A stretch of 64,000 nucleotides of DNA from Eledone cirrhosa. Lineage: Eukaryota. The position numbers and the translations under genes were made by a program. Below the pieces are notes generated by a model. It was not told where the DNA came from and did not search any database. It saw only the letters and a program-made list of their open reading frames with translations. The stretch covers positions 41,230,001-41,294,000 of the forward strand of contig OZ024748.1 of the NCBI GenBank assembly GCA_964016885.1. Direction: 5' to 3'. Below, piece by piece: positions 7,210 through 60,200 of the stretch. Position 1 is the first letter of the stretch, and the number at the start of each line of letters is the position of its first letter.

Positions 7210-7935
7210 CTTACCTGACGAATAGTTATACCTTTACATTACCTGACGAATAGTTATACCTTGACGTTACCTGACGAATAGTTATACCTTGACGTTACCT
7301 GACGAATAGTTATACCTTTACCTTACCTGACGAATAGTTATACTTTTACCTTACCTGACGAATAGTTATACCTTTACCTTACCTGACGAATAGTTATACC
7401 TTTACCTTACCTGATGAATAGTTATACCTTTACTTTACCTGACGAATAGTTATACCTTTACTTTACCTGACAAATAGTTATAACTTTACTTTACCTGACA
7501 AATATTTATACCTTTACCTTACCTGACAAATAGTTATACCTTTACTTTACCTGACAAATAGTTATACCTTTACCTTACCTGACGAATAGTTATACCTTTA
7601 CTTTACCTGACAAATAGTTATACCTTTAGCTTACCTGACAAATAGTTATACCTTTACCTTACCTGACGAATAGTTATAACTTTACCTTACCTGACGAATA
7701 GTTATACCTTTACTTTACCTGACTAATAGTTATATTTTATTCTACCTGTCCAACAGCCATACTTCTATCTTACCTGTCCAATAGCCATACTTCTATCTTA
7801 CCTGACAAATAGCCATTCTATCTTACCTGTCCAACAGCCATACTTCTATCTTACCTGACAAATAGTTATACCTTTACTTTACCAGTCTATTAGCCATATT
7901 TTATTCTACTTGTCCAATAGCCATACTTCTACCGT
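7210..7935 (+). repeat. 28-bp minisatellite
   Basis: Unit ttacctgacgaatagttatacctttacc, degenerating after ~7740. Confidence 0.93.
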
Positions 7936-8007: not shown

Positions 8008-8077
8008 GTTTCCTGATGAGTTGAGGTTTTCACAATGCTCAAAAGTGAGGTTTACTCAATGAAACTGCAGTAGGGAT
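8008..8077 (+). ncRNA. Minimal type I hammerhead ribozyme motif (family E, CTGCAG stem III)
   Basis: gtttc-CTGATGA-gttgag[..tcac..gtga..]ctcaat-GAAA-ctgcag-TA-gggat. Stem II pairs well. Stem I is mostly G-U wobbles and probably decayed. Confidence 0.7.
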
Positions 8078-17934: not shown

Positions 17935-18000
17935 TATTTTATTATATATATTTCAAGGGCAACCAAGGCAAATTATGGTGCGCTTTCATCAGATAAAATA
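17935..18000 (-). ncRNA. Minimal type I hammerhead ribozyme motif (family A, TATATA stem III)
   Basis: The minus strand reads tattttat-CTGATGA-aagcgcacca..tggttgccctt-GAAA-tatata-TA-ataaaata. Stem I is 8 bp and the element ends in (TA)n about 43 nt downstream. Confidence 0.8.
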
Positions 18001-18096: not shown

Positions 18097-18207
<111 letters not shown>

Positions 18208-18544
18208 TTAGCAGAGTACTCGGTACTTGGGATAGTAGAGTGAATATGAGTCTGGAATTTGCTGTCGAAACGGCAAGAGCTCAGTCGTTGGGCTCAGACT
18301 CTCTAATATTTATATACATATATCCAGAGAGAGGATAGCACAGAGAGAGGATGGCACAGGGGGAGAAGGGGGTGCAGATTAACTATTAAGTAAGATAAAC
18401 ACGTGCTTAAGATCTTAAGAGGGACCCGAAAAACTTCTTTTTCCTTTAACACTACAGTATATGTTACCTTTTTGTCCCCATATACAGTATCTAGGGTTAT
18501 TATAATCGTCCCTCTAGTGCATTTAAAGGGGTTAATGATCTGGC

Positions 18545-24715: not shown

Positions 24716-24785
24716 CTCCGGTAAATTAACAGAATCAGACTAAATGCCTTGTGGTATTTGTTTTGGTTCTTTACTTTCTCAGTTC

Positions 24786-24898
24786 AATACATATATATAA
24801 GTCGAGGCCCAGAGGTCCAATACATATATATATAAGTCGAGGCCCAATACATATATATAAGTCGAGGCCCAGTACATATATATATAAGTCGAGGTCCA

Positions 24899-24979
<81 letters not shown>

Positions 24980-25024
24980 CCGAGGCCCAATACATATGTA
25001 TATAAGTCGAGGTCCAATACATAC

Positions 25025-25081
<57 letters not shown>

Positions 25082-25238
25082 AACCAGTAAGACCCCGACA
25101 GCTGAGCTCAAGCCGTTTCGAAACGGCTTGAGCTCAGCTGTCGGGGTCTTACTGGTTCCTATTACCCACTCTACTACCTCAAGTATTGAGTACTTTGGTG
25201 CGTTATGGTCCACCTGGTTCCTTACCACATTTCCTTCG

Positions 25239-25305
<67 letters not shown>

Positions 25306-25536
25306 TCGAGGCCCAATACATATATATAAGCCGAGGCCCAATACATATATATATATAAGTCGAGGCCCAATACATATATACATATAAGTCGAAGTCCAAT
25401 ACATATATATATAAGCCGAGGCCCAATACACACACATATATAAGTCGAGGTCCAATACATACATATATAAGTCGAGGTCCAATACACATATATATAAGTC
25501 GAGGCCCAATACACATATATATAAGTCGAGGCCCAA
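24786..25536 (+). repeat. Variable minisatellite (TA)n-agtcgaggcccaatac, interrupted by an insert
   Basis: About 15 copies of tataagtcgagg(c/t)ccaatacat separated by variable TA runs, interrupted at 25077-25241. Confidence 0.85.
25077..25162. repeat. Perfect 86-bp spacerless palindrome
   Basis: ataggaaccagtaagaccccgacagctgagctcaagccgtttc|gaaacggcttgagctcagctgtcggggtcttactggttcctat, centred at 25119/25120. Confidence 0.95.
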
Positions 25537-25685
25537 CAGCTGAGCTCTTGTTCCGACAGCAAATTCCAGACAGAAACGGCAAGAGTTCAGCCGTCGGTCC
25601 CTGCCTCTCTAATATTCCAAGTATTGAGTACTCTGTTGAATAATGCTCTTGTTTAAAACTAGTTTAACCTATATATATAACTATA

Positions 25686-25750
25686 TATTTTATCTGATGA
25701 AGACGTACTGCAAAAAAACAACACTGTACCTTTGAAATATATATAATAAA
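25686..25750 (+). ncRNA. Minimal type I hammerhead ribozyme motif (family A-related, different stem II)
   Basis: tttat-CTGATGA-agacgtac..gtaccttt-GAAA-tatata-TA-ataaa, then about 55 nt to (TA)n. Confidence 0.7.
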
Positions 25751-25796
25751 GCATATATTTTGATTATGTGAATATCTTTCATTTGTTAATATTTTG

Positions 25797-25863
<67 letters not shown>

Positions 25864-26066
25864 TATGTACACGTACATACAATTATGTATACCGACGTAC
25901 AGTAGTATGTATATACATATATACATACATGCACACATATATATATGCACGTATGGATTCACCGAACATTTATTATAATGCTCGGTGTGTTTGTAAACAA
26001 ACATCCCGTATTGAGCCGTAGTGTCTAGCAACCACCGTTGCTCGATTGTTCAACACTAACAAAGGA

Positions 26067-26109
26067 ACGCTGTACTAGTTTCAAGCTTGTTAGCTATCGT
26101 CAGCAACGT
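26067..26109 (-). ncRNA. Minimal type I hammerhead ribozyme motif (family D, CTAG stem III)
   Basis: The minus strand reads acgttg-CTGACGA-tagctaacaagctt-GAAA-ctag-TA-cagcgt. Confidence 0.8.
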
Positions 26110-26488
26110 ATACCTTCCTGCCAGATTGTTGAACGTATATACTTACCTTATGCATATTAACGGCTGAGTAGCCCAATATGCATATCGAGTGGGTTAATCG
26201 GCCGGGTGCACCGAAAACGATAAACGGAAAAAATGAAACGATATTTCATTTCCCACTCTTAGTACGGCTGTTACTTAAATATAAGTATGTACACGTACAT
26301 ACATATATGTATACCGACGTACAGTAATATGTATATACATATATACATACATGCACACATATATATATGCACGTATGGATTCACCGAACATTTATTATAA
26401 TGCTCGGTGTGTTTGTAAACAAACATCCCGTATTAAGCCGTAGTGTCTAGCAACCACCGTTGCTCGTTTGTTCAACACTGACAAAGGA

Positions 26489-26531
26489 ACGCTGTACTAG
26501 TTTCAAGCTTGTTAGCTATCGTCAGCAACGT
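26489..26531 (-). ncRNA. Minimal type I hammerhead ribozyme motif (family D)
   Basis: Identical to 26067-26109 and 422 bp away. Confidence 0.8.
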
Positions 26532-26692
26532 ATACCTTCGTATACCTGGGAAATGAAATATCGTTTCATTTTTTCCGTTTATCTTTTTCGGTGCACCCGG
26601 CCGATTAACCCACTCGATATGCATATTGGGCTACTCAGCCGTTAATATGCATAAGGTAAGTATATACGTTCAACAATCTGGCAGGAAGGTAT

Positions 26693-26735
26693 ACGTTGCT
26701 GACGATAGCTAAGAAGCTTGAAACTAGTACAGCGT
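26693..26735 (+). ncRNA. Minimal type I hammerhead ribozyme motif (family D)
   Basis: acgttg-CTGACGA-tagc-taagaa-gctt-GAAA-ctag-TA-cagcgt. Confidence 0.8.
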
Positions 26736-26998
26736 TCCTTTGTCAGTGTTGAACAAACGAGCAACGGTGGTTGCTAGACACTACGGCTTAATACGGGATG
26801 TTTGTTTACAAACACACCGAGAATTATAATAAATGTTCGGTGAATCCATACGTGCATATATATATGTGTGCATGTATGTATATATGTATATACATACTAC
26901 TGTACGTCGGTATACATATATGTATGTACGTGTACATACTTATATTTAAGTAACAGCCGTACGAAGAGTGGGAAATGAAATATCGTTTCATTTTTTCC

Positions 26999-27050
<52 letters not shown>

Positions 27051-27324
27051 GGAAAAGAATGAAACGAAATTTCATTTCTCACTCTTAGTACGGCACTTAC
27101 TTAAATGCAAGTATGTATGTATACGTACATACATATATGTATACAGACGTACAGTAGCATGTATATATATACATACAGGCACACATATATATATGCACGT
27201 ATCAGTTTACCGAACATTTATTATAATGCTCGGTTTGTTCGTTTGTAAACAAACAAACAGCCTGATTTACGCCGTACAGTGTTTAGGCAACCACGTCACC
27301 TTTTTGTTCAACACTGACACAGGA

Positions 27325-27367
27325 ACGATGTACTAGTTTCAAGCTTATTAGCTATCGTCAGCACCAT
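27325..27367 (-). ncRNA. Minimal type I hammerhead ribozyme motif (family D, diverged with compensatory changes)
   Basis: The minus strand reads atggtg-CTGACGA-tagctaataagctt-GAAA-ctag-TA-catcgt. Three stem I substitutions all keep pairing. Confidence 0.8.
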
Positions 27368-27422
27368 ATACCTTTCTGCCAGATGGTTGAACGTCAGAAA
27401 GTATATACTTTCCTTATGAAAA

Positions 27423-27470
<48 letters not shown>

Positions 27471-27512
27471 ACGATATTAAATAAATGGAAACTATATTTA
27501 TAAAACCATATT

Positions 27513-27577
27513 TATTTTATTATATATATTTCAAGGGCAACCAAGACAACATTGGTACGCTTTCATCAGATAAAATA
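27513..27577 (-). ncRNA. Minimal type I hammerhead ribozyme motif (family A)
   Basis: The minus strand reads tattttat-CTGATGA-aagcgtacca..tggttgccctt-GAAA-tatata-TA-ataaaata. Its downstream tail (27472-27505) is mirrored in inverted form at ~27674-27706. Confidence 0.8.
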
Positions 27578-28142
27578 CAAAGTTTGTTCATCAGATAAAA
27601 TAGAAAGTTTGTTTTATAAACAGAGACATACCCATGAAAATCATACTTTATCGGTTGGAAATTCACTGGATAGTTTTATAAATATAGTTTCCATTTATTT
27701 AATATCATTGAATATTTACTCCAGTAACTTGTTGAATGCTCTAAATCATTTATAAACATTTATGTTTGTCGGACTTCTAACAAATTAAATACAACTTCTA
27801 CTTATATATATAGATTTCAGATAAAGAATCTTGCTAAACAAATTCAGAAACGAAATATATATATATATAAATGAAAAGAATAGAAATTATTGTAGCAAGA
27901 AGCCAACAGTATTCCAGTGAAAGAATGAAGAGTAACATGGTTGCAACCAACCATGTTACTCTTCATTTTTTCACTATTATTACTCCAAGTATAACTACAT
28001 AGAATTACCGCGAACTCGCCACCTAACTATGGAAACATCTTGTTGAGTCAAACAAAGCCGTACGTTAAAACTATCCACGACGCAGAGTACTCACAACCCC
28101 TAACTGGATTACCTATAACGATAACTTGTTATCCCATATATA

Positions 28143-28204
<62 letters not shown>

Positions 28205-31475: not shown

Positions 31476-31831
31476 CACCTGATACAGTAAAGTCAGCCTT
31501 AATATGACTCTTCATCTACTTGTCTATTATTCTTTACCTATATTTGTTTTTTCTTAAAAGTAGTTTTGCCTGAACACATCTATCTCTCTATCTCTCTATT
31601 TATTTATCTATCTATCTATCTATCTATCTTGATAGAGTAAGACACGCTTCGCATCGGCTCCGCTATTCCATCGGGATTTACCCTTACTATTGTAAGTACT
31701 GGATAAATTTTTTAGTGCAACACATTTGGAACACTAACCCCTGTTATTTAGGGAAACATTTTTGCATTTACCCCCTTTTTAGGGGGTAAAATAAATATCT
31801 ATTTTTGCCGAAAAATTTCTTTTTTGGCAGC

Positions 31832-33535
31832 ATGGCGGAAAAGATGGCAGACATGTCTGCCATTAGCTCTGCCACGCCCCCCAAGTCTGAAGAACAAAAA
31901 ATAATTACAACAAAATTAGACATTGAAACAAACAAACAAAATGAAAAAACAAATGTTAAGGAAAATGAGCAAACAGAAAACAAACAAACAGAAAATAATA
32001 CAAATAACGACAGGGCAACTTTCGCCCAGAAAACAAAACAATCCATTACATACACACCAATTGACCTAACTGCCGCCAGAGAAAAACTGGCCGAAGCAAA
32101 GAAACACATTGTTTTGGGGGAGAACGGAATGTTTTCCATTAACTCCCCCCCCCCCCCCCCAGAATTCAAGAAAGCCAGAGCAGAAAACACAGTTCTATAC
32201 AGAACTATACTGAACCAGACAAGAAAGCCAGCACAGCCCAGCCAAATGGAAATAGAGTTAGTCCTAAAAGACTATATGAAGAATATTCTCTTCATACGAA
32301 AGGACCGACTCTATGGCAGCATTTCGGTCCTAACAAGAGACAAAGAAACGGCGGAGAAGCTTTCCCTAAGCCCACTCTCGTCGACAACATATAGCTTCTA
32401 TCCCTCCTACATGGGTAGAAGAACACAGAGAGTAAAAGTAAAAACAATGCTGCCCACAATGGACTTCTGGTGGGCTATTGCTGGCTTCATTGATATGGGC
32501 GAAGACACTATGCTGTCAATGGGGAAGGCAACTGGAGATGCGTTCCTGGGAATGGGCCTCGACATACTAGTCCAAATGAGGCCCGAAAGAATAGCACAAA
32601 TCCCGGATCGCATCTGGCTGGATGACCTTACCCCAATAGACATAATTGTAGAGGGGAGAAGACCAGCATGCTATTTATGCATGGAAAGGGGACACGTTAA
32701 GGCTAACTGCCCGAAACGTATCCCCCAAAAAGGACTATTGCCCACACCCACCACAAACAGTACACCAGCACCACCCACCTCCAAAAATACACTAATACCA
32801 CACACAGCAAACAAAATACAGACACCACCAACCACAAACACAACACAAACATCACCACCACCAGCACCAAACACAAGCACGACACAAAAATCACCACCAC
32901 CAACCACAACACAAACATCACCACCACCATCACCAACCACAAGCACGACACAAACATTACCACCACCACCACCACCACAAAACCCATTCCAAACAAATAA
33001 TAAAAAAAACAGTAACAAATCTACCCCTCCCGCAAAAAAAAAACAACCACACAACACGTCCCTCCCACCTAGCGCTGAAGAGTTTCCCCCAACTTCTGAA
33101 GAAGAAGGAGGAGAAGCCTTCAGACAAGTTAAAAGAAAAAAAAGAAAACACACACCCAGCACACCACAAATAACCCACACACAAACACCAACTCCAATCA
33201 AAAACACCCCACCCTCAACAAACAAAAATAAATCTGCGCCTCCCCTCTCCGAAACATTGACAGCATCACAAAAAAAGACGTTGCAATACACATATATAAA
33301 TAAAGAAAACAAAAAACTGGTTAAATTAATAAACAATAACCCTATGGTGCAGACCGAAGGGCCAAACTTTATCTCAACAGAGAACTTCACCCATTTAAAA
33401 ATGATAAAGGTCCCTCTGGACCTTTATCGTTCCTTAAAAGAACAATTTAGACGGGACGTGAGCCCCCCCCCCCTGTTTAAAACCGTTGAATCGCGTCCTC
33501 TTGAAAGATTTCCCCATAACCGCCCCTCTCCCTGA
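31832..33535 (+). CDS. LINE ORF1 (gag-like nucleic-acid-binding protein with CCHC zinc knuckle and Pro/Thr-rich tail)
   Basis: First ATG at 31832 (agcATGG). Zinc knuckle CYLCMERGHVKANC preceded by VEGRRPA. Basic motif QVKRKKRK. Confidence 0.85.
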   Translation: MAEKMADMSAISSATPPKSEEQKIITTKLDIETNKQNEKTNVKENEQTENKQTENNTNNDRATFAQKTKQSITYTPIDLTAAREKLAEAKKHIVLGENGMFSINSPPPPPEFKKARAENTVLYRTILNQTRKPAQPSQMEIELVLKDYMKNILFIRKDRLYGSISVLTRDKETAEKLSLSPLSSTTYSFYPSYMGRRTQRVKVKTMLPTMDFWWAIAGFIDMGEDTMLSMGKATGDAFLGMGLDILVQMRPERIAQIPDRIWLDDLTPIDIIVEGRRPACYLCMERGHVKANCPKRIPQKGLLPTPTTNSTPAPPTSKNTLIPHTANKIQTPPTTNTTQTSPPPAPNTSTTQKSPPPTTTQTSPPPSPTTSTTQTLPPPPPPQNPFQTNNKKNSNKSTPPAKKKQPHNTSLPPSAEEFPPTSEEEGGEAFRQVKRKKRKHTPSTPQITHTQTPTPIKNTPPSTNKNKSAPPLSETLTASQKKTLQYTYINKENKKLVKLINNNPMVQTEGPNFISTENFTHLKMIKVPLDLYRSLKEQFRRDVSPPPLFKTVESRPLERFPHNRPSP

Positions 33536-33679
33536 CACAACTCCAAATACCCCAACCCCACCACACACGTGTACCCCCACACCACCACAAAACATCCCTC
33601 CACCCAACACACCTGATGCCATGGAAATTACGCAACCCGGAGAGGTAAGTGCTTTTCTTTCTTCACTTTCAACACCAAA

Positions 33680-36600
33680 ATAGATCAATTGAGAGTTGGC
33701 TGTTTGAACGCGCGTGGCCTGGGCTCAGCTTGGAAGCAAGCAAAGCTTCTAAGTGACCTCAGGTCACAAAGTATAGATGTGATGGTTGTTTGCGAGAGTC
33801 GGATCAGCAGCGTGAGACAGCTGGCGCCCGCCTTCGATGACTTTGAGATGCACGCATCTCTCTGTCAACCCGGAGGCGGGGGGGGGGGGAGTTGCCGTAC
33901 TGCTGGATAAACGTCTGACTCTCGACGTACAGATTGTTCACTCGGACCCGGGGGGTCGATTACTGGTGCTGGACGTCGGAGGCGGTGAAGGCGGGGCTTT
34001 CAGACTGGTCGGTCTTTATGCTCCCTTCGGGGCGGAAAGAGCCGACTTCTTCCAGCGTCTGGAGACTTTTCTAGGAACGTCGCGTTCCCTGCTTTTAGTG
34101 GGGGACTGGAATGGAATCCTAGATGCGCGTTGGGACTATGCAGGGGCATGTCCCGATAGAGGGGGGTGTAGCAGCCTCAAGGGGTTACTCGATCGATTCG
34201 ACCTGGTCGATAGATTTCGACTAGATTGTCCAACTGCGCCAACCTGGACCTGGGCAAACCGCAGTGGACAATCTAGATCGTACCTAGATAGGTTTTTGGT
34301 TAGGAGTAAGGATAGGGACGTATTTAGTTGTCCAGAACTGATCATGGTTGGCTATTCAGATCACAAATTAGTGACCTGCGTGGTCAACCTTGATAGAACG
34401 CATAGACAGGGTCCCGGTTACTGGAAGATGAACTTGTCCTTGCCGACAAAGAAAGATTACAGAAACCGGATTAGTAGCTTAGTTAAGATGCGGTTGACGG
34501 GAGCGATCGTCAACAGTAGGTGGTGGGTATCTCTAAAGAGAGAGATTAGAGTAAGTTCGATAGGTTACAGTAAGGAACTAGCGGCGAATAGAAATAGGAA
34601 GGAAAGGGAGTTAACAGATAAACTAGAAGAGGCGATTAGGAGCGGAGACGTAGCCAGAGTGTTAGCGGCAAGAACGGCGTTGAGCCAGTTCTTTGACGCG
34701 AAGCACGAAGGCTGCGTTGTCCGAAGTAAAATACGTGCTTTAGGAAACGAGGGGACCAAAGCTGTTAGCTGGGCCCGCGTGACAGAAGCCAAGAGTGGAA
34801 TTAAATCCACCATTCGGTCTTTGCGAGACCAGGATGGACGGGTGATCCTTGAACCTGAGCGAATGTGCGAGGCCTTTCAAAGGCACTTTGCTCGACTGTT
34901 CGGAGGTGGCGGGGGGCCGGACGGGGATGTGGACTTCGGTCCATACCTCGACGGTCTACCGCGTCTTTCGAGCGGCGAAGCGGAGTGCTGCGAAAGGCCA
35001 ATCACAGCCACTGAAATCGGGGAAGTGCTCAGCCAATGCAGCAGACGCAAATCCCCGGGTCTCGATGGTCTACCATACGAACTTTATTTAGCTATGCCGG
35101 TCTTGTTCTCCGAACTCCTCGAGGCTGTCTATTGCAACTGGCAACAGAACGGGAGAATTCCCTGTTCTGTGACCAAGGGCGTGGTCACGCTAGTGAGGAA
35201 GGACGAGAGCAAGGGGGACGACTTAAGTAATTTTAGGCCCATAACTCTGCTGAATGCAGAGTTACAGATTTTGGCCAAGGTGTTGGCGAAGAGGTTGGCG
35301 CTTGTGGTGGGTGGTTTGGTAGGAGACGCGCAGACATGCGCTATCCCGTCCAGGTCCATTCACGACAACCTCCACCTCATGCGATACATCATAGAGAGGG
35401 TTGGCTACGAACCCGGCTTTGGTGGGGCCCTGATCAACTTGGATCAATCTAAGGCGTTCGATAGGGTCGACCATGGTTACCTGGATGCGGTGCTAGCGGC
35501 GGCGGGCTTCGGACCCGTTTTCAGGGGCTGGATTTCTGCCATGCACAGTGGCAACATCTACTCTAGGATTAAAGTAAACGGCTACCTCTCGGAGCCGTTT
35601 CAAATCACCCGGTCCATCAGACAGGGGGTGCCCCCTCTCCTCCCTTCTGTACGTATTGACTCTCGAGCCACTGCTGCGAAAGTTGGAGTTGCTGCGGGGC
35701 ATACCCCTGGAACCGGGATTGCACAAAGCGGTCTCGGCCTATGCCGACGACGTAACAGTAATGGTGGCGGACGCCTCGGAAATCGGGGTGATCGCCACCC
35801 TACTGGAGGAATACGAAAGGCTGACGGGGGCTAGGCTGAACCAGGACAAGTCAGTCGGTTTGCAACTCGGAACGTGGAGGGGCAAACCGATGCCGTTAGA
35901 CGGTGTCGTCGGGCGGTGGACGGAGGGCCCGGTGAAGCTACTCGGGGTCTGGTTCGGACCGGACCTCCAGGTGGAGAAGAATTGGGGCGAGGTGACGAGC
36001 AGAGTGTTTGCGCTGACCCAGAAGTGGGCCAAGTGCAAACTATCACTGAAAGGTCGGGCGGAGGTGACGAGCGCTTACATAGCGTCCGTCATCTACTACC
36101 GCCTGACCGTCGTGCCTTGCCCCAAGGAAAAGCTCACCATCATGGAACGCATGCTCTTCCAGTTCCTCTGGAAGAAGCGGCCTCCCATGGTGAGGAGATC
36201 CATCTGCTGCCAGCACCCTTCGAAAGGAGGGCTGGGTATGCCGTGGCTGTTGATGCGTAGGCACGCATTGAGGCTACGGCATCTACAGGTATTCCTCAAC
36301 GGTCAGCCGGTGTGGGCCCCGTTTGTGAGGCGAGCCTTCCCACAGCTCGTCTCGCTCACCGAACTGCAATCCTGGGTGAAGCAAAGACCGAGAAAACTGG
36401 GCAACTGGCACACCGAGTGTGCCCAGGCGCTCACGGCTATCTGGCAAGCGGACCCGACTATCAGTGGAGAATCCACCTCGACATTCTATAGAGGGTTGGT
36501 GGCTAGCAAGGGCGACGACACCCTTGGAGAGTTGCTAGGCATGGAGGAGGACGAACTGGCCAGCCTGTTCGGTAGAACTTTCGGCCCGGGACCCATGGAC

Positions 36601-37122
36601 GACTTCCAGAGGTCCCTAGCCTGGCAGTGTTACCGAGGGGCTCTGCCCGTTCGAGAAAAGCTCTACAGACACGGGCGCCCGGGCAGGGATCCCGCGAAAA
36701 AGATCTGCCCCAGATGCGTGCGCGACGAGGAAACCGTTGCGCATGCACTGGTACACTGCCCGGGCGTTGCCGATCTGTGGGGCTACGTCGAACGACTGCT
36801 GTCTCGTGTGGCGCCGATTCGATTAACCGCCGAGTCTGTGGTGAACATCAAGCCGCCTCCTCCCTTCAGAAATGAAGCAGAGGCGGTCTTTCTGTGCGTA
36901 ATAGCCATGATGAAAGAGGTTGTGTGGTGGACGCGCCTGAAAGGTCTGAGGTCGGGTGACTTTCTCTCCGGCCATCACCTGGTTTACTTCTTCCGATACC
37001 ACTTCGGAAGAAGGATCAGGATGGAGAGAGAAGTGCTTGGCCCCAGACAGTTTTATGAAAGGTGGGTGAAAGAAGTGAGAATGGCCCGTGTAAATGGGCC
37101 TTCTCTCTACATTGTTCTGTAG
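33680..37122 (+). CDS. LINE ORF2: AP endonuclease, reverse transcriptase and C-terminal CCHC zinc finger (two +1 frameshifts in G runs)
   Basis: APE motifs LNARGL, VCES, GGVAVL, YAP, GDWN, YLDRFL, SDH. RT motifs KSPGLDGLP, NFRPITLLN, LDQSKAFDRVDH, RQGCPLS (after removing one G at 35624-35628), YADD. Zinc finger CPRCVRDEETVAHALVHC. The first shift lies in G12 at 33878-33889. The start is inferred at in-frame ATA 33680. Confidence 0.92.
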
Positions 37123-37412: not shown

Positions 37413-37622
37413 ACTATATATATATATATATATATAATGTAGGAGGTGAGTTTTATTGTAGTACAATAAAGCAATGCAGATATCGGATAAGAAGCACTCT
37501 ACAGTTTGTAGGACTGGAGTATACATAATATATAAGATCAAAAGATGGTTAAAGGAGTTCCATATGTTGATTTAAAACTGCACTATCCACAAGTGTTTTT
37601 TAGCCTTCATATCATGTTCTCC

Positions 37623-37693
37623 TGTTTTATCTGATGAAAACACAAATATTATTGCATGATGATGTTTGTTTTTGAAATGCGCATAATAAAATA
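37623..37693 (+). ncRNA. Minimal type I hammerhead ribozyme motif (family B, TGCGCA stem III)
   Basis: tgttttat-CTGATGA-aaacacaaatatt..gatgtttgttttt-GAAA-tgcgca-TA-ataaaata. It lies inside 39-bp inverted repeats at 37525-37563 and 37695-37733, ending in (TA)n. Confidence 0.85.
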
Positions 37694-37723
37694 CATGGAA
37701 CTCCTTTAACCATCTTTTGATCT

Positions 37724-37795
<72 letters not shown>

Positions 37796-38694: not shown

Positions 38695-39691
38695 GTTTAC
38701 ATATACATAAAGTTATAGATATATATGTTGCAACCGGTCACTTTGTGGCTCTATGAAGAATTAATAAATTAAATAATCAGAGCAATATATCATAAATCAT
38801 GTCTTTAGAATTATTAGATAAAATATATACCATTTCCTCTCCCAATCAGCATAATTAACATATAAAAAATCAATTAGACCAAGCTATAAGAATAAAGGCT
38901 CTTATGAAGAAATCTCCGACAAATAACCGAAAGTGGCCTCTTCGCGGTGGCCCCAATAGAGTATTTATCCAACATTTCGACAGCATGTAGAAACTGACTA
39001 AATATACCATCAACCATACACAATTAGGTGTAAATTAAAACTTTGATGAAATGCGTACATACCGTAATTATATCTCTACCATGGTTTCATCCGTATTTTT
39101 AGACATCCAATTAATAGGAAATGTCCAGAGATAGGATTCATCAGGAGACAAATTCAAAATTAGACATTTAGTTTTCCAAAGTGATCGCGCCAAAATTAGA
39201 TTTAAAAATGGCTAAGAATCGCAATGTGGCAGTGGTCAAGTTAGAAAGAATGTGATTGGTTGCTTACGGCGGGTAGGCTTGTTGCTAGATATCGCCAAAT
39301 TGTATCTCAACCTAACGGGAGATTATTAAATATAAAGGTTTACATATACATAAAGTTATAGATATATATTAATTGGATGTCTAAAAATACGGATGAAACC
39401 ATGGTAGAGATATAATTACGGTATGTACACATTTCATCTAAGTTTGAATTTACACCTAATTGTGTATGGTTGATGGTATATTTAGTCAGTTTCTACATGC
39501 TGTCGAAATGTTGGATAAATACTCTATTGGGGCCACCGCGAAGAGGCCACTTTCGGTTATTTGTCGGAGATTTCTTCATAAGAGCCTTTATTCTTATAGC
39601 TTGGTCTAATTGATTTTTTATATGGTTAATTATGCTGATTGGGAGAGGAAATGGTATATATTTTATCTAATAATTCTAAAGACATGATTTA

Positions 39692-40559: not shown

Positions 40560-40689
40560 AAAGTTATATTTAATTTGTTGGGATTCAACAAGCTTAAAAG
40601 TTTTATAACTGATATAAAGCACTCAACAGTTTACTGGAGTAAATATTCGATATATTAATAAATGGAAACTATATTTATAAAACCATAAT

Positions 40690-40754
40690 TATTTTATTAT
40701 ATATATTTCAAGAGCAACCAAGGCAGTTTTGGTGCGCTTTCATCAGATAAAATA
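40690..40754 (-). ncRNA. Minimal type I hammerhead ribozyme motif (family A)
   Basis: The minus strand reads tattttat-CTGATGA-aagcgcacca..tggttgctctt-GAAA-tatata-TA-ataaaata. Confidence 0.8.
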
Positions 40755-40862
40755 CAAAATTTGTTTTATAAATGTTGACATACCCGGTAGACTATCCAGC
40801 GAACCTCCAACCGTCAAGATCGTTTTTCTGTGGGTATGTCAACATCTATAAAACAAATTTTG

Positions 40863-40928
40863 TATTTTATCTGATGAAAGCGCACCAAAATTTGCCTTGG
40901 TTGCTCTTGAAATATATATAATAAAATA
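40863..40928 (+). ncRNA. Minimal type I hammerhead ribozyme motif (family A)
   Basis: tattttat-CTGATGA-aagcgcaccaaaatttgccttggttgctctt-GAAA-tatata-TA-ataaaata. Confidence 0.82.
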
Positions 40929-40969
40929 ATTATGGTTTTATAAATATAGTTTCCATTTATTAATATATC

Positions 40970-41036
<67 letters not shown>

Positions 41037-41319: not shown

Positions 41320-41374
<55 letters not shown>

Positions 41375-41476
41375 CTACTGTACGCCTGTATACATATATG
41401 TATGTACGTATACATACTTATATTTAAGTAACAGCCGTACTAAGAGTGAGAAATGAAATTTCGTTTCATTTTTTCC

Positions 41477-41532
<56 letters not shown>

Positions 41533-48125: not shown

Positions 48126-48282
48126 GTGTGTGTGTGTGTGCGTGTGTGCGTGTGCGTGTGTGTGTGTGCGTGTGCATGTGTGTGTGTGCGTGTGCGTGTG
48201 TGTGTGTGCGTGTGCGTGTGTGTGTGCTTAAATTCCTCAACACTCCTTCACTCCCACACTCAATAATACTGCACTCCACCCT

Positions 48283-51200
48283 GCAGACACATCCAAATCT
48301 CTCCCATATATAGTCACACATCACAACACAACCAAATCTCTCCTATATATAGTCACACATCACAACACAACCAAATCTCTCCTATATATAGTCACACATC
48401 ACAACACAACCAAATCTCTCCTATATATAGTCACACATCACAACACAACCAAATGTCTCCTATATATAGTCACACATCATAACACAACCAAATCTCTCCT
48501 ATATATAGTCACACATCACAACACATCCAAATCTCTCCTATATATAGTCACACATCACAACACAACCAAATCTCTCCTATATATAGTCACACATCACAAC
48601 ACAACCAAATCTCTCCTATATATAGTCACACATCACAACACAACCAAATCTCTCCTATATATAGTCACACATCACAACACAACCAAATCTCTCCTATATA
48701 TAGTCACACATCACAACACAACCAAATCTCTCCAATATATAGTCACACATCACAACACATCCAAATCTCTCCTATATATAGTCACACATCACAACACAAC
48801 CAAATCTCTCCTATATATAGTCACACATCACAACACAACCAAATCTCTCCTATATATAGTCACACATCACAACACAACCAAATCTCTCCTATATATAGTC
48901 ACACATCACAACACAACCAAATCTCTCCTATATATAGTCACACATCACAACACAACCAAATCTCTCCTATATATAGTCACACATCACAACACAACCAAAT
49001 CTCTCTCATATATATAGTCACACATCACAACACAACCAAATCTCTCCTATATTTAGTCACACATCACAACACAACCAAATCTCTCCTATATATAGTCACA
49101 CATCACAACACAACCAAATCTCTCCTATATATAGTCACACATCACAACACAACCAAATCTCTCCTATATATAGTCACACATCACAACACAACCAAATCTC
49201 TCTCCTATATTTAGTCACACATCACAACACAACCAAATCTCTCCTATATATAGTCACACATCACAACACAACCAAATCTCTCCTATATATAGTCACACAT
49301 CACAACACAACCAAATCTCTCCTATATATAGTCACACATCACAACACAACCAAATCTCTCTCCTATATATAGTCACATATCACAACACAACCAAATCTCT
49401 CTCCTATATATAGTCACACATCACAACACAACCAAATGTCTCCTATATTTAGTCACACATCACAACACAACCAAATCTCTCCTATATATAGTCACACATC
49501 ACAACACAACCAAATCTCTCCTATATATAGTCACACATCACAACACAACCAAATCTCTCTCCTATATATAGTCACACATCACAACACAACCAAATCTCTC
49601 CTATATTTAGTCACACATCACAACACAACCAAATCTCTCCTATATATAGTCACACATCACAACACAACCAAATCTCTCCTATATATAGTCACACATCACA
49701 ACACAACCAAATCTCTCCTATATATAGTCACACATCACAACACAACCAAATGTCTCCTATATATAGTCACACATCACAACACAACCAAAACTCTCCTATA
49801 TATAGTCACACATCACAACACAACCAAATCTCTCCTATATATAGTCACACATCACAACACAACCAAATGTCTCCTGTATATAGTCACACATGACAACACA
49901 ACCAAATGTCTCCTATATATAGTCACACATCACAACACAACCAAATGTCTCCTATATATAGTCACACATCACGACACAACCAAATCTCTCCTATATATAG
50001 TCACACATCACAACACATCCAAATCTCTCCTATATATAGTCACACATCACAACACAACCAAATCTCTCCTATATATAGTCACACATCACAACACAACCAA
50101 ATGTCTCCTATATATAGTCACACATCACAACACAACCAAATCTCTCCTATATATAGTCACACATCACGACACAACCAAATCTCTCCTATATATAGTCACA
50201 CATCACAACACAAACAAATCTCTCCTATATATAGTCACACATCACAACACAACCAAATCTCTCCTATATATAGTCACACATCACAAAACAACCAAATCTC
50301 TCCTATATATAGTCACACATCACAACACAACCAAATCTCTCCTATATATAGTCACACATCACAACACAACCAAATCTCTCCTATATTTAGTCACACATCA
50401 CAACACAACCAAATCTCTCCTATATATAGTCACACATCACAACACAACGAAATCTCTCCTATATATAGTCACACATCACAACACAACCAAATCTCTCCTA
50501 TATATAGTCACACATCACAACACAACCAAATCTCTCCTATATATAGTCACACATCACAACACATCCAAATCTCTCCTATATATAGTCACACATCACAACA
50601 CAACCAAATCTCTCCTATATATAGTCACACATATCAACACAACCAAATCTCTCCTATATATAGGCACACATCACAACACATCCAAATCTCTCCTATAAAT
50701 AGTCACACATAACAACACAACCAAATCTCTCCTATATATAGTCACACATCACAACACAACCAAATCTCTCCTATATATAGTCACACATCACAACACAACC
50801 AAATCTCTCCTATATATAGTCACACATCACAGCACAACCAAATTTCTCCTATATATAGTCACACATCACAACACAACCAAATCTCTCCTATATATAGTCA
50901 CACATCACAACACAACCAAATCTCTCCTATATATAGTCACACATCACAACACAACCAAATCTCTCCTTTATATAGTCACACATCACAACACAAACAAATC
51001 TCTCCTATATATAGTCAGACATCACAACACAACCTGATCTCTCTCTTATATATAGTCACACATCACAACACAACCAAATCTCTCCTATATATAGTCACAC
51101 ATCACAACACAACCAAATCTCTCCTATATATAGTCACACATCACAACACAACCAAATCTCTCCTATATATATAGTCACACATCACAACACAAACAAATCT

Positions 51201-54200
51201 CTCCTATATATAGTCACACATCACAACACAACCAAATCTCTCCTATATATATAGTCACACATCACAACACAACCAAATCTCTCCTATATATAGTCACACA
51301 TCACAAAACAACCAAATCTCTCCTATATATAGTCACACATCACAACACAACCAAATCTCTCCTATATATAGTCACACATCACAACACAACCAAATCTCTC
51401 CTATATATAGTCACACATCACAACACAACCAAATCTCTCCTATATATAGTCACACATCACAACACAACCAAATCTCTCCTATATATAGTCACACATCACA
51501 ACACATCCAAATCTCTCCTATATTTAGTCACACATCACAACACAACCAAATCTCTCCTATATATAGTCACACATCACGACACAAACAAATCTCTCCTATA
51601 TATAGTCACACATCACAACACAACCAAATCTCTCCTATATATAGTCACACATCACAACACAACCAAATCTCTCCTATATATAGTCACACATCACAACACA
51701 ACCTGATCTCTCTCCTATATATAGTCACATATCACAACACAACCAAATCTCTCCTATATATAGTCACACATCACAACACAACCAAATCTTTCCTATATAT
51801 AGTCACACATCACAACACAACCAAATCCCTCTCCTATATATAGTCACACATCACAACACAACCAAATCTCTCCTATATATAGTCTCACATCACAACACAA
51901 CCAAATTTCTCCTATATATAGTCACACATGACAACACAATCAAATCTCTCCTATATATAGTCACACATCACAACACAACCAGATCTCTCTCCTATATATA
52001 GTCACACATCACAACACAACCAAATCTCTCCTATATATAGTCACACATCACAACACAACCTGATCTCTCTCCTATATATAATCACACATCACAACACAAC
52101 CAAATATCTCCTATATATAGTCACACATCATAACACAACCAAATCTCTCCTATATATAGTCACACATGACAACACAACCAAATCTCTCCTATATATAGTC
52201 ACACATCACAACACAACAAAATCTCTCCTATATATAGTCACACATGACAACACAACCAAATATCTCCTATATATAGTCACACAACACAACACAACCTGAT
52301 CTCTCTCTTATATATAGTCACACATCACAACACGACCAAATCTCTCTCCTATATATAGTCACACATCACAACACAACCAAATCTCTCCTATATATAGTCA
52401 CACATCACAACACAACCAAATCTCTCCTATATATAGTCACACATCACAACACAACGAAATCTCTCCTATATATAGTCACACATCATAAAACAACCAAATC
52501 TCTCCTATATATAGTCACACATCACAACACAACCAAATCTCTCCAATATATAGTCACACATCACAACACATCCAAATCTCTCCTATATATAGTCACACAT
52601 CACAACACAACCAAATCTCTCCTCTATATAGTCACACATCACAACACAACCAAATCTCTCCTATATATAGTCACACATCACAACACAACCTGATATCTCT
52701 CCTATATATAGTCACACATCACAACACAACCAAATCTCTCTCCTATATATAGTCACACATCACAACACAACCAAATCTTTCCTATATGTAGTCACACATC
52801 ACAACACACCCAAATCTCTCTCCTATATATAGTCACACATCACAACACAACCAAATCTCTCCTATATATAGTCACACATCACAACACAACCTGATCTCTC
52901 TCCTATATATAGTCACACATCACAACACAACCAAATCTCTCCTATATATAGTCACACATCACAACACAACCAAATCTCTCTCCTATATATAGTCACACAC
53001 CACAACACAACCAAATATCTCCTATATATAGTCACACATCACAACACAACCTGATCTCTCTCCTATATATAGTGACACATCACAACACAACCAAATCTCT
53101 CCTATATATAGTCACACATGACAACACAACCAAATCTCTCCTATATATAGTCACACATCACAACACAACCAAATCTCTCTCCTATATATAGTCACACAGC
53201 ACAACACAACGAAATCTCTCCTATATATAGTCACACATCACAACACAACCAAATCTCTCCTATATATAGTCACACATCACAACACAACCAAATTTCTCCT
53301 ATATATAGTCACACATCACAGCACAACCAAATCTCTCCTATATATAGTCACACATCACAACACAACCAAATCTCTCTCCTATATATAGTCACACATCACA
53401 ACACAACCAAATCTCTCCTATATATAGTCACACATCACAACACAACCAAATCTCTCCTATATATAGTCACACATCACAACACAACCAAATCTCTCCTATA
53501 TATAGTCACACATCACAATACAACCAAATCTCTCCTATATATAGTCACACATCACAACACAAGCAAATCTCTCCTATATATAGTCACACATCACAACACA
53601 ACCAAATCTCTCCTATATATAGTCAAACATCACAACACAACAAAATCTCTCCTATATATAGTCACACATCACAACACAACCAAATCTCTCCTATATATAG
53701 TCACACATCACCACACAACCAAATCTCTCCTATATATAGTCACACATCATAACACAACCAAATCTCTCCTATATATAGTCACACATCACAACACAACCAA
53801 ATCTCTCCTATATATAGTCACACATCACAACACAAGCAAATCTCTCCTATATATAGTCACACATGACAACACAACCAAATCTCTCCTATATATAGTCACA
53901 CATCACAACACAAGCAAATCTCTCCTATATATAGTCACACATGACAACACAACCAAATCTCTCCTATATATAGTCACACATCACCACACAACCAAATCTC
54001 TCTCCTATATATAGTGACACATCACAACACAACCAAATCTCTCCTATATATAGTCACACATCACAACACAAGCAAATCTCTCCTATATATAGTCACACAT
54101 GACAACACAACCAAATCTCTCCTATATATAGTCACACATCACAACACAACCAAATCTCTCCTATATATAGTCACACATGACAACACAACCAAATCTCTCG

Positions 54201-57200
54201 TATATATAGTCACACATGACAACACAAACAAATCTCTCTCCTATATATAGTCACACAGCACAACACAACGAAATCTCTCCTATATATAGTCACACATCAC
54301 AACACAACCAAATCTCTCCTATATATAGTCACACATCACAACACAACCAAATTTCTCCTATATATAGTCACACATCACAGCACAACCAAATCTCTCCTAT
54401 ATATAGTCACACATCACAACATAACCAAATCTCTCTCCTATATATAGTCACACATCACAACACAACCAAATCTCTCCTATATATAGTCACACATCACAAC
54501 ACAACCAAATCTCTCCTATATATAGTCACACATCACAACACAACCAAATCTCTCCTATATATAGTCACACATCACAATACAACCAAATCTCTCCTATATA
54601 TAGTCACACATCACAACACAAGCAAATCTCTCCTATATATAGTCACACATCACAACACAACCAAATCTCTCCTATATATAGTCAAACATCACAACACAAC
54701 AAAATCTCTCCTATATATAGTCACACATCACAACACAACCAAATCTCTCCTATATATAGTCACACATCACCACACAACCAAATCTCTCCTATATATAGTC
54801 ACACATCATAACACAACCAAATCTCTCCTATATATAGTCACACATCACAACACAACCAAATCTCTCCTATATATAGTCACACATCACAACACAAGCAAAT
54901 CTCTCCTATATATAGTCACACATGACAACACAACCAAATCTCTCCTATATATAGTCACACATGACAACACAAGCAAATCTCTCCTATATATAGTCACACA
55001 TGACAACACAACCAAATCTCTCCTATATATAGTCACACATCACCACACAACCAAATCTCTCCTATATATAGTCACACATCATAACACAACCAAATCTCTC
55101 CTATATATAGTCACACAGCACAACACAACGAAATCTCGCCTATATATAGTCACACATCACAACACAACCAAATCTCTCCTATATATAGTCACACATCACC
55201 ACACAACCAAATCTCTCCTATATATAGTCACACATCATAACACAACCAAATCTCTCCTATATATAGTCACACATCACAACACAACCAAATCTCTCCTATA
55301 TATAGTCACACATCACAACACAACGAAATCTCTCCTATATTTAGTCACACATCACAACACAACCAAATCTCTCCTATATATAGTCACACATCACAACACA
55401 ACCAAATCTCTCCTATATATAGTCACACATCACAACACAACCAAATCTCTCCTATATATAGTCACACATCACAACACAAGCAAATATCTCCTATATATAG
55501 TCACACATGACAACACAACCAAATCTCTCTCCTATATATAGTCACACATCACAACACAACTAAATCTCTCCTATATATAGTCACACATCACTACACAACC
55601 AAATCTCTCCTATATATAGTCACACAGCACAACACAACGAAATCTCTCCTATATATAGTCACACATCACAATACAACCAAATCTCTCCTATATATAGTCA
55701 CACATCACAACACAACCAAATCTCTCCTATATATAGTCACACATCACAATTCAACCAAATCTCTCCTATATATAGTCACACATCAGAACACAACCAAATA
55801 TCTCCTATATATAGTCACACATCACAACACAACCAAATCTCTCTCCTATATATAGTCACACATCACAACACAACCAAATCTCTCCTATATATAGTCACAC
55901 ATCACAGCACAACCAAATCTCTCCTATATATAGTCACACATCACAACACAACCAAATCTCTCCTATATATATAGTCACACATCACAACACAAACAAATCT
56001 CTCCTATATATAGTCACACATCACAACACAACCAAATCTCTCCTATATATATAGTCACACATCACAACACAACCAAATCTCTCCTATATATAGTCACACA
56101 TCACAAAACAACCAAATCTCTCCTATATATAGTCACACATCACAACACAACCAAATCTCTCCTATATATAGTCACACATCACAACACAACCAAATCTCTC
56201 CTATATATAGTCACACATCACAACACAACCAAATCTCTCCTATATATAGTCACACATCACAACACAACCAAATCTCTCCTATATATAGTCACACATCACA
56301 ACACATCCAAATCTCTCCTATATTTAGTCACACATCACAACACAACCAAATCTCTCCTATATATAGTCACACATCACGACACAACCAAATCTCTCCTATA
56401 TATAGTCACACATCACAACACAACCAAATCTCTCCTATATATAGTCACACATCACAACACAACCAAATCTCTCCTATATATAGTCACACATCACAACACA
56501 ACCTGATCTCTCTCCTATATATAGTCACATATCACAACACAACCAAATCTCTCCTATATATAGTCACACATCACAACACAACCAAATCTTTCCTATATAT
56601 AGTCACACATCACAACACAACCAAATCCCTCTCCTATATATAGTCACACATCACAACACAACCAAATCTCTCCTATATATAGTCTCACATCACAACACAA
56701 CCAAATTTCTCCTATATATAGTCACACATGACAACACAATCAAATCTCTCCTATATATAGTCACACATCACAACACAACCAAATCTCTCTCCTATATATA
56801 GTCACACATCACAACACAACCAAATCTCTCCTATATATAGTCACACATCACAACACAACCTGATCTCTCTCCTATATATAATCACACATCACAACACAAC
56901 CAAATATCTCCTATATATAGTCACACATCATAACACAACCAAATCTCTCCTATATATAGTCACACATGACAACACAACCAAATCTCTCCTATATATAGTC
57001 ACACATCACAACACAACCAAATCTCTCCTATATATAGTCACACATGACAACACAACCAAATCTCTCCTATATATAGTCACACAACACAACACAACCTGAT
57101 CTCTCTCCTATATATAGTCACACATCACAACACGACCAAATCTCTCTCCTATATATAGTCACACATCACAACACAACCAAATCTCTCCTATATATAGTCA

Positions 57201-60200
57201 CACATCACAACACAACGAAATCTCTCCTATATATAGTCACACATCATAAAACAACCAAATCTCTCCTATATATAGTCACACATCACAACACAACCAAATC
57301 TCTCCAATATATAGTCACACATCACAACACATCCAAATCTCTCCTATATATAGTCACACATCACAACACAACCAAATCTCTCCTCTATATAGTCACACAT
57401 CACAACACAACCAAATCTCTCCTATATATAGTCACACATCACAACACAACCTGATATCTCTCCTATATATAGTCACACATCACAACACAACCAAATCTCT
57501 CCTATATATAGTCACACATCACAACACAACCAAATCTCTCTCCTATATATAGTCACACATCACAACACAACCAAATCTCTCCTATATATAGTCACACATC
57601 ACAACACAACCTGATCTCTCTCCTATATATAGTCACACATCACAACACAACCAAATCTCTCCTATATATAGTCACACATCACAACACAACCAAATCTCTC
57701 TCCTATATATAGTCACACACCACAACACAACCAAATCTCTCCTATATATAGTCACACATCACAACACAACCAAATCTCTCTCCTATATATAGTCACACAT
57801 CACAACACAACCAAATCTTTCCTATATGTAGTCACACATCACAACACACCCAAATCTCTCTCCTATATATAGTCACACATCACAACACAACCAAATCTCT
57901 CCTATATATAGTCACACATCACAACACAACCTGATCTCTCTCCTATATATAGTCACACATCACAACACAACCAAATCTCTCCTATATATAGTCACACATC
58001 ACAACACAACCAAATCTCTCTCCTATATATAGTCACACACCTCAACACAACCAAATCTCTCCTATATATAGTCACACATCACAACACAACCTGATCTCTC
58101 TCCTATATATAGTGACACATCACAACACAACCAAATCTCTCCTATATATAGTCACACATGACAACACAACCAAATCTCTCCTATATATAGTCACACATCA
58201 CAACACAACCAAATCTCTCTCCTATATATAGTCACACAGCACAACACAACGAAATCTCTCCTATATATAGTCACACATCACAACACAACCAAATCTCTCC
58301 TATATATAGTCACACATCACAACACAACCAAATTTCTCCTATATATAGTAACACATCACAGCACAACCAAATCTCTCCTATATATAGTCACACATCACAA
58401 CACAACCAAATCTCTCTCCTATATATAGTCACACATCACAACACAACCAAATCTCTCCTATATATAGTCACACATCACAACACAACCAAATCTCTCCTAT
58501 ATATAGTCACACATCACAACACAACCAAATCTCTCCTATATATAGTCACACATCACAGCACAACCAAATCTCTCCTATATATAGTCACACATCACAACAC
58601 AACCAAATCTCTCCTATATATAGTCACACATCACAACACAACCAAATCTCTCCTATATATAGTCAAACATCACAACACAACAAAATCTATCCTATATATA
58701 GTCACACATCACAACACAACCAAATCTCTCCTATATATAGTCACACATCACCACACAACCAAATCTCTCCTATATATAGTCACACATCATAACACAACCA
58801 AATCTCTCCTATATATAGTCACACATCACAACACAACCAAATCTCTCCTATATATAGTCACACATCACAACACAAGCAAATCTCTCCTATATATAGTCAC
58901 ACATGACAACACAACCAAATCTCTCCTATATATAGTCACACATCACAACACAAGCAAATCTCTCCTATATATAGTCACACATGACAACACAACCAAATCT
59001 CTCCTATATATAGTCACACATCACCACACAACCAAATCTCTCTCCTATATATAGTGACACATCACAACACAACCAAATCTCTCCTATATATAGTCACACA
59101 TCACAACACAAGCAAATCTCTCCTATATATAGTCACACATGACAACACAACCAAATCTCTCCTATATATAGTCACACATCACAACACAACCAAATCTCTC
59201 TCCTATATATAGTCACACAGCACAACACAACGAAATCTCTCCTATATATAGTCACACATCACAACACAACCAAATCTCTCCTATATATAGTCACACATCA
59301 CAACACAACCAAATTTCTCCTATATATAGTCACACATCACAGCACGACCAAATCTCTCCTATATATAGTCACACATCACAACACAACCAAATCTCTCTCC
59401 TATATATAGTCACACATCACAACACAACCAAATCTCTCCTATATATAGTCACACATCACAACACAACCAAATCTCTCCTATATATAGTCACACATCACAA
59501 CACAACCAAATCTCTCCTATATATAGTCACACATCACAATACAACCAAATCTCTCCTATATATAGTCACACATCACAACACAAGCAAATCTCTCCTATAT
59601 ATAGTCACACATCACAACACAACCAAATCTCTCCTATATATAGTCAAACATCACAACACAACAAAATCTCTCCTATATATAGTCACACATCACAACACAA
59701 CCAAATCTCTCCTATATATAGTCACACATCACCACACAACCAAATCTCTCCTATATATAGTCACACATCATAACACAACCAAATCTCTCCTATATATAGT
59801 CACACATCACAACACAACCAAATCTCTCCTATATATAGTCACACATCACAACACAAGCAAATCTCTCCTATATATAGTCACACATGACAACACAACCAAA
59901 TCTCTCCTATATATAGTCACACATCACAACACAAGCAAATCTCTCCTATATATAGTCACACATGACAACACAACCAAATCTCTCCTATATATAGTCACAC
60001 ATCACCACACAACCAAATCTCTCCTATATATAGTCACACATCATAACACAACCAAATCTCTCCTATATATAGTCACACAGCACAACACAACGAAATCTCG
60101 CCTATATATAGTCACACATGACAACACAACCAAATCTCTCCTATATATAGTCACACATCACCACACAACCAAATCTCTCCTATATATAGTCACACATCAT

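Follow-up and report, generated by a model that had tools for sequence, protein, structure and literature searches.

The closest described relatives of the ribozymes analyzed here are the hammerheads of Penelope-like elements (PLEs), which have a type I topology and a palindromic stem III predicted to need dimers, occur as many covarying families per genome (PMC4209133) and form opposite-strand pairs 100-700 bp apart. According to sections of PMC8557442 and PMC3846280, a typical PLE insertion is truncated at its 5' end and arranged partly in tandem and head-to-head. Elements of the Hydra clade, present in Octopus bimaculoides (Hydra-1_Obim), target (TA)n tracts and carry a hammerhead close to their 3' end (sections of Craig et al. 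2021, PMC8557442); cephalopod Naiads also insert into (TA)n and, in the same sections, are given no canonical hammerheads. For an anole PLE in vitro, parts of PMC11167929 report that hammerhead cleavage is dispensable for insertion, and protein-assisted.

A second group of relatives are the metazoan non-LTR retrozymes, non-coding tandem repeats with one type I hammerhead per unit (sections of PMC7229834 and of 10.64898/2026.07.22.740005), a GC content below 45% and high self-pairing. Sections of PMC7229834 describe their expression as circles, as well as the cleavage of the axolotl motif HHR_Amex2, which is better as a dimer. Retrozymes appear derived from pLTRs, and eight of nine Xenopus retrozyme dimers did not cleave (passages of 10.64898/2026.07.22.740005). 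In cephalopods, the giant squid genome has 235 matches to Rfam hammerhead_1 (PMC6962438). We found no description of cephalopod retrozymes in the literature searched, outside of which lie most subscription papers and Repbase, and the families presented below may already be catalogued.

The window, that is, the whole stretch of 64 kb analyzed here, is animal DNA dense in repeats, with numerous (TA)n tracts and satellites. We scanned both strands for the hammerhead core with stems I and II, without any condition on stem III. Twelve of the 41 CTGANGA sites pass the stem I and stem II filters; a control of 200 block-shuffled windows produced two matches in total, none of them palindromic. Hammerhead motifs are present far beyond chance. 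In all 12, CUGANGA, GAAA and a UH cleavage site follow one another as required, the triplet being GUA or AUA; stem I is open (5-8 bp) and stem II closed (at least 3 bp), these two stems being scan criteria. They represent nine insertions, six families and five palindromes (Table 1; the letters A and D are those of the original prediction, and other motifs are named by a position within them). The catalytic core is common to the six families; stems I and II and the palindrome differ, with pairing kept. The usual G10.1-C11.1 pair, common and not universal, is absent in all 12: its place is taken by U.U in D, by A-U in A, 25694, 37631 and 39144, and by G-U in 8013.

Rfam missed all 12 motifs. No hammerhead match reaches gathering level in the window, and none is found among the 86 matches at E<=10 in 25500-27900; microRNA-like matches, far below gathering score, were discarded as TA-repeat artefacts. 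A covariance model built from six A-like motifs matched those six only, and patterns of the family D and family A type had no match in a collection of bacterial and archaeal genomes. Folded singly, the A-like, 39144 and 8013 motifs have unremarkable z-scores (-1.2 to +0.2), family D being the sole motif with a strong one (about -3). The 8008..8077 hammerhead has a weak stem I (five pairs, three of them G-U) and is possibly decayed. Directly upstream lies a 28-bp satellite (7210-7883) whose unit contains CTGACGA; none of its 12 CTGANGA sites passes the stem filters as a ribozyme. The hammerhead at 39071..39150 sits in a 333-bp foldback (38785-39116/39367-39699).

Between GAAA and the cleavage UH, all 12 motifs have a perfect palindromic spacer. 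Five palindromes are used (TATATA, TGCGCA, CTGCAG, CCATGG and CTAG), and the chance of obtaining five independent ones is about 7e-9. Among the four palindromes of 6 nt, each of the four Watson-Crick types is represented at both inner pairs. Since positions 0 and 2 nt apart cannot close a hairpin, covariation at these pairs points to a duplex between two ribozymes. The predicted self-duplexes have 6-8 bp and energies of -3.2 to -11.2 kcal/mol, and a stem III is obtained in the dimer form only, no stable monomer hairpin being predicted. The variation of the innermost pairs thus fits double-hammerhead dimers, and their covariation across five palindromes represents comparative support for a double-hammerhead fold. 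Judged from their sequences, the 12 motifs would work like dimer-type type I hammerheads, with self-cleavage predicted. For 40858-40933 and the remaining motifs of the TATATA type, predictions pair the 5' strand of stem I with GAAA and the palindrome in the monomer. This inactive fold, which is not predicted for the TGCGCA family, might serve as a switch.

Table 1. Hammerhead motifs and associated elements in the window
Feature	Position	Strand	Details
Family D type I hammerhead	26693..26735	+	Stem I 26693-26698/26730-26735; CUGACGA 26699-26705; U.U at stem II base 26706/26719; stem II 26707-26710/26715-26718 with tetraloop; GAAA 26720-26723; palindrome CUAG; predicted cleavage after GUA at 26729
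Family D hammerhead	26489..26531	-	First of same-strand tandem pair; predicted cleavage after 26495
Family D hammerhead	26067..26109	-	Second of tandem pair, 422 nt downstream; predicted cleavage after 26073
Predicted cleavage-to-cleavage monomer	26073..26494	-	422 nt, 38% GC (162/422)
Young family D insertion	25854..27004		Head-to-head, both arms end in (TA)n
Diverged family D hammerhead	27325..27367	-	Stem I AUGGUG/CAUCGU
Diverged family D copy	27048..27426	-	5'-truncated, (TA)n on both sides
Third family D insertion	41366..41482	+	Limited to the 3' end, without ribozyme; shares the 3' terminus preceding (TA)n
Family A hammerhead (UAUAUA)	40863..40928	+	Right arm of head-to-head pair 40640-40978
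Family A hammerhead	40690..40754	-	Left arm of head-to-head pair 40640-40978
Family A hammerhead	27513..27577	-	Inverted arm from 27670
Family A hammerhead	17935..18000	-	5'-truncated copy with (TA)n end
A-related hammerhead family (UAUAUA)	25686..25753	+	Stem II different but paired
Separate-family hammerhead	37623..37693	+	A-like stem I; palindrome UGCGCA; 12-bp stem II extension
Hammerhead, another family	39071..39150	-	Palindrome CCAUGG
Hammerhead, another family	8008..8077	+	Palindrome CUGCAG

The original prediction drew on family D, where stem I was said to read ACGTTG/CAGCGT in three copies and ATGGTG/CATCGT in a diverged one, through compensatory changes indicating selection on RNA structure. 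The letters are exactly as claimed, for the three copies (26693-26735 on the plus strand, 26489-26531 and 26067-26109 on the minus strand) as for the diverged one (27325-27367, minus strand), and all six pairs form in both versions of the stem. The three matching copies cannot be counted as separate instances: 97-99% identical, they all lie within one head-to-head insertion, related by a 422-nt period and an inverted arm. Therefore, only two independent hammerhead-bearing D lineages are compared. Both pair changes are found, but only the U-G to G-U exchange is two-sided, neither state being Watson-Crick; the other turns C-G into U-G by a change on one side, within a CpG. The two lineages differ at 3 of 12 stem I sites, and the probability that all six pairs survive three substitutions in 12 sites is 0.028-0.107, depending on transition bias. 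In the diverged copy, two pairs of the 18-pair stem I extension are broken, a point absent from the original prediction. The 31-pair D structure has one pair changed on both sides, two changed on one side and two broken, an outcome reached by a pair-shuffle control in 164 of 500 shuffles.

Between D lineages, no difference is seen at the 25 sites of core, stem II and CTAG (0/25), compared with 36/312 in the flanks (Fisher p=0.053). Loop II, presented there as freely variable, is really an AANA tetraloop closed by U-A in which a single nucleotide varies. Its G state differs from the sister arms within the same young insertion and could reflect either a change after insertion or an error in the assembly. 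Taken alone, with two lineages and p of about 0.03-0.1, the D stem I example is weak.

The young D insertion combines a minus arm running from 26539 to 25854 (some 1.6 tandem units, with a period of 422 nt), a 7-nt junction (26540-26546) and a plus arm of one unit and 36 nt (26547-27004). Its arms are 97.8% complementary over 402 nt. A long-read foldback artefact was considered as its source; unequal arms, and the same geometry in four other insertions, make this unlikely. The diverged D copy differs from the young one by 11.5% in the flanks.

The D monomer is highly structured. Its circular minimum free energy is -147.2 kcal/mol, compared to -99 +/- 5-6 for shuffled sequences (0/100), with self-pairing z-scores of about -6 to -9 (-6.4 against block shuffles and -6.6 once the RY-rich stretch is removed). 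The antisense strand folds less well than the sense strand and is still non-random (-117.6, z -4.8); G-U pairs number 15 in the sense fold and 4 in the antisense fold. Forty substitutions between D lineages leave the energy unchanged (-118.7 versus -118.9). A one-sided null, which puts all change on one lineage, gives -98.4 +/- 6.9, and the observed energy is reached in 0/200 runs; as this null assumes change on a single lineage, symmetric nulls were adopted, under which the support is weaker. Of the differences between D copies, 20/41 (0.49) are compatible with the structure, versus 0.32-0.33 in symmetric nulls, where the observed fraction is reached in 5/133 and 2/137 runs (p about 0.015-0.04), and 0.29 in the one-sided decay null (0/119); these D-unit nulls start from an observed copy, which may overstate significance. 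Across the D unit, there is no excess of two-sided changes (28/133, 14/137 and 28/119). Two hairpins illustrate how structure is kept between lineages: at 26799-26814, 4 nt are gained on each arm, and at 26760-26775 every pair is kept through several changes. The support for structural constraint within D is real but modest.

The second example of the original prediction was the motif at 37623, described as keeping a family-A-like stem I with TGCGCA in place of TATATA. The replacement is correct and its four changes amount to two pair swaps between families (the probability of keeping a palindrome given four changes is 0.02-0.05), but the motif does not hold as a family A copy. Common parts are limited to stem I, the core and the base of stem II. 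Stem II aligns with that of family A better than shuffles (0/300); upstream and tail alignments do not rise above the level of shuffles (82/300 and 112/300), for which reason an origin as an A copy was rejected. The tail of this motif (37694-37725) recurs inverted at about 37533-37566. Stronger evidence comes from aligning six motifs of A, 25694 and 37631: 99.1% of 108 cells are paired, compared with 37-67% in slid controls, and 5 of 18 pairs show two-sided change, three in stem II and two in the palindrome, bearing in mind that the shuffle control ignores relatedness and that the structure was drawn from those same sequences. Three pairs into stem II, a pyrimidine-pyrimidine mismatch (columns 27/57 of alignment A2) is kept in all six motifs, and its neighbors covary across families A, 25694 and 37631. 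In one family A copy, a 25-bp tandem duplication (27570-27594, minus strand) repeats the 5' strand of stem I and CTGATGA, without the rest of the ribozyme.

The insertions have several features of PLEs. Structures that are partly tandem, 5'-truncated and inverted head-to-head are observed, with inverted head-to-head arms in five of the nine insertions, and six cut sites are located 43-61 nt before a (TA)n tract. Six of the 12 cut sites lie at most 100 nt from (TA)5+, versus 19% of 1000 random points. Insertion into (TA)n, a feature of the Hydra clade, is not diagnostic of it since it is also true of cephalopod Naiads. We found no Pfam match at E<=0.01, and no remnant of reverse transcriptase (RT) or GIY-YIG, in the 115 ORFs of at least 35 aa within about 900 nt of the motifs; among 118 ORFs compared to Pfam, an unrelated LINE ORF was the sole match. 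Given that no ORF with telomerase-like RT and GIY-YIG was found, the copies are not classed as autonomous PLEs, and the link to PLEs rests on geometry and motif type. Short (TA)n-ending 3' tails, head-to-head arms and the lack of coding remnants fit fragments of Penelope-like pLTRs together with a non-LTR retrozyme.

The motifs share with described PLE hammerheads the traits listed at the outset; they differ in that palindromes form 6-8 bp, longer than the minimal form, in the absence of G10.1-C11.1, and in that no PLE ORF adjoins any copy. In the parts of PMC8557442 that list Hydra hammerheads, many resemble D in having CUGANGA-U, a 4-bp stem II with a tetraloop and U-GAAAC; the stems III listed there have 1-3 central loop nucleotides, whereas ours are perfect even palindromes. 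By eye, the Hydra-1_Obim hammerhead given in this source differs from all 12 motifs, and no Hydra protein was found in the scanned regions of the window. When five motifs were searched as text in the supplement of PMC8557442, where line breaks can hide matches, three were absent from the portion searched; in the same unaligned search, the other two had single matches, in coding-looking sequence.

Family D resembles metazoan retrozymes as far as testable: its units each contain a type I hammerhead, are arranged in tandem 422 nt apart (about 1.6 units only), are non-coding and highly self-paired and have less than 45% GC. Sections of PMC7229834 give HHR_Amex2 the same U.U at the base of stem II. 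The D unit slightly exceeds the 170-400 nt quoted for invertebrate retrozymes in the sections consulted and falls inside the 51-972 bp range given in those of Li et al. (10.64898/2026.07.22.740005). Head-to-head insertion into (TA)n is a D feature that the sections on metazoan retrozymes do not mention, and metazoan retrozymes are expressed as circular RNA, whereas D is known here from DNA. The motifs of the window are added examples of described hammerhead and retrozyme biology.

Several neighbors of the motifs deserve mention. At least five insertions with common (TA)n tracts are nested in 24785-28200, including 25694, the young and diverged D insertions, the family A motif at 27569, as well as a hairpin element and its 27-bp satellite; the same microsatellites seem to have been targeted repeatedly. 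A perfect foldback of about 85 nt (25079-25163) has relatives at 25531-25649 and 18199-18310, and related hairpin elements lie upstream of hammerheads 25694 and 17992 alike. A nearly full-length L1/Tx1-like LINE occupies 31790-37122 on the plus strand: its first ORF has 581 aa, and endonuclease and RT follow in two overlapping frames, with a frameshift near 35.6-35.8 kb. Among 38 matches of the LINE protein, the best named animal one is from Argonauta hians (60% identity), which makes an octopod source of the window likely. Another match of the LINE protein (P0004, 61% identical) is labeled as a bacterial MAG (Herbaspirillum sp.) and is probably animal DNA contaminating that assembly. A minus-strand ORF fragment at 1527-2003, without match in a Pfam search, resembles the C-terminal restriction-like endonuclease of a non-LTR retrotransposon. 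From about 48200 to 64000, some 16 kb consist of a C/A-rich short-period satellite with an extreme GC skew of about -0.8.

These observations are best read as the outcome of selection for RNA structure in the source elements, as the original prediction proposed, but on evidence other than that first quoted: the 12/12 palindromes, two-sided changes across A/25694/37631 and the D-unit differences give stronger support. The pattern seen in D and A is also expected biology, since covariation in PLE and retrozyme hammerheads has already been reported. For D stem I, we may also hypothesize chance and neutral decay: the ribozymes would be real and the example devoid of signal, one CpG transition and two unrelated transversions happening to leave G-U. 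The probability of 0.03-0.11, obtained before allowing for the choice of the best example, the shuffle control (164/500) and two broken pairs nearby all favor this explanation. However, decay of the diverged copy alone, starting from the young master, is rejected (-118.7 against -98.4 +/- 6.9, 0/200; 0/119), and five different palindromes at one position are left unexplained; we consider it unlikely. Template switching during DNA replication or reverse transcription, documented in sections of PMC8794818, would perfect hairpins and palindromes without selection. An 8-nt insertion that makes a perfect 16-nt palindrome at 27397-27412 and the D hairpin lengthened on both arms are suggestive of this mechanism, which may have produced some of the perfected hairpins, the former among them. 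As a general explanation it is improbable, for it copies Watson-Crick complements and would produce neither the U-G to G-U exchange nor an excess of G-U on the ribozyme strand, and it does not explain a core and a palindrome position fixed across six families.

Other alternatives concern the nature of the elements. All motifs, D included, might be 3' ends of 5'-truncated autonomous PLEs, with the 422-nt repeat as a tandem pLTR. In six motifs, the tail preceding (TA)n measures 43-61 nt and does resemble the 3' ends of Hydra-clade PLEs (as shown in parts of PMC8557442), and tandem and inverted pLTRs are typical (sections of PMC8557442 and PMC3846280). The D unit, however, repeats directly with no coding spacer and no Pfam match, and its size, GC content and folding are retrozyme-like. 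This alternative, which we hold to be rather unlikely, would relabel D only and leave the selection argument untouched. Finally, palindromes and hairpins could act as DNA (nuclease or protein sites, cruciforms in a MITE-like element), the hammerhead match being incidental. Although several elements resemble foldbacks with TA flanks and Rfam finds no match, all 12 motifs possess, in order, CUGANGA, GAAA and UH as well as both stems I and II, binding at the DNA level would preserve the sequence and not symmetry only, and the inverted arms are unequal and head-to-head, so that we regard a DNA-level role as highly improbable.

Our preferred reading, to which we assign a probability of about 0.85, is that the 12 motifs are palindromic type I hammerheads, likely end repeats of PLEs and, for D, a non-coding retrozyme; they are predicted to cut as dimers, and because of this selection likely preserved their pairing during the active period of the source elements. 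With a loop of 0-2 nt, the palindrome could not close a hairpin; instead, two ribozymes, in one transcript or in two, would swap strands to form a stem III of 6-8 bp, with cleavage following GUA or AUA. The two D ribozymes that lie on the same strand, at a distance of 422 nt, would free a highly self-paired monomer able to circularize. The RT and GIY-YIG nuclease of an autonomous PLE would then, in trans, copy such RNAs into (TA)n tracts, giving rise to 5'-truncated, tandem and head-to-head copies. That this partner is a (TA)n-targeting PLE of the Hydra type is the most likely option, which we hold at even odds. Selection would act between master lineages and inserted copies would decay neutrally, hence the one-sided changes and broken pairs. 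Several points argue against this reading. In a transcript that continues into the inverted arm, the first ribozyme of the tandem pair would be sequestered as double-stranded RNA, all 12 motifs are without G10.1-C11.1 and escape Rfam, and, in other systems, the anole PLE inserted in vitro without need of hammerhead cleavage and eight of nine Xenopus dimers did not cleave.

The window provides a compact natural test set, with a 422-nt candidate retrozyme from a probable octopod. We may speculate further, though the idea is doubtful, that octopods harbor a very large population of dimer-dependent hammerheads invisible to Rfam, in which D would be an active retrozyme with a circular RNA of 422 nt, placed in (TA)n by a PLE of the Hydra type, and the palindromes would serve as a pairing code. 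Were the window typical, 12 motifs per 64 kb would translate into hundreds of thousands of hammerheads and, if the pairing code is true, each ribozyme would cut only with its own kind.
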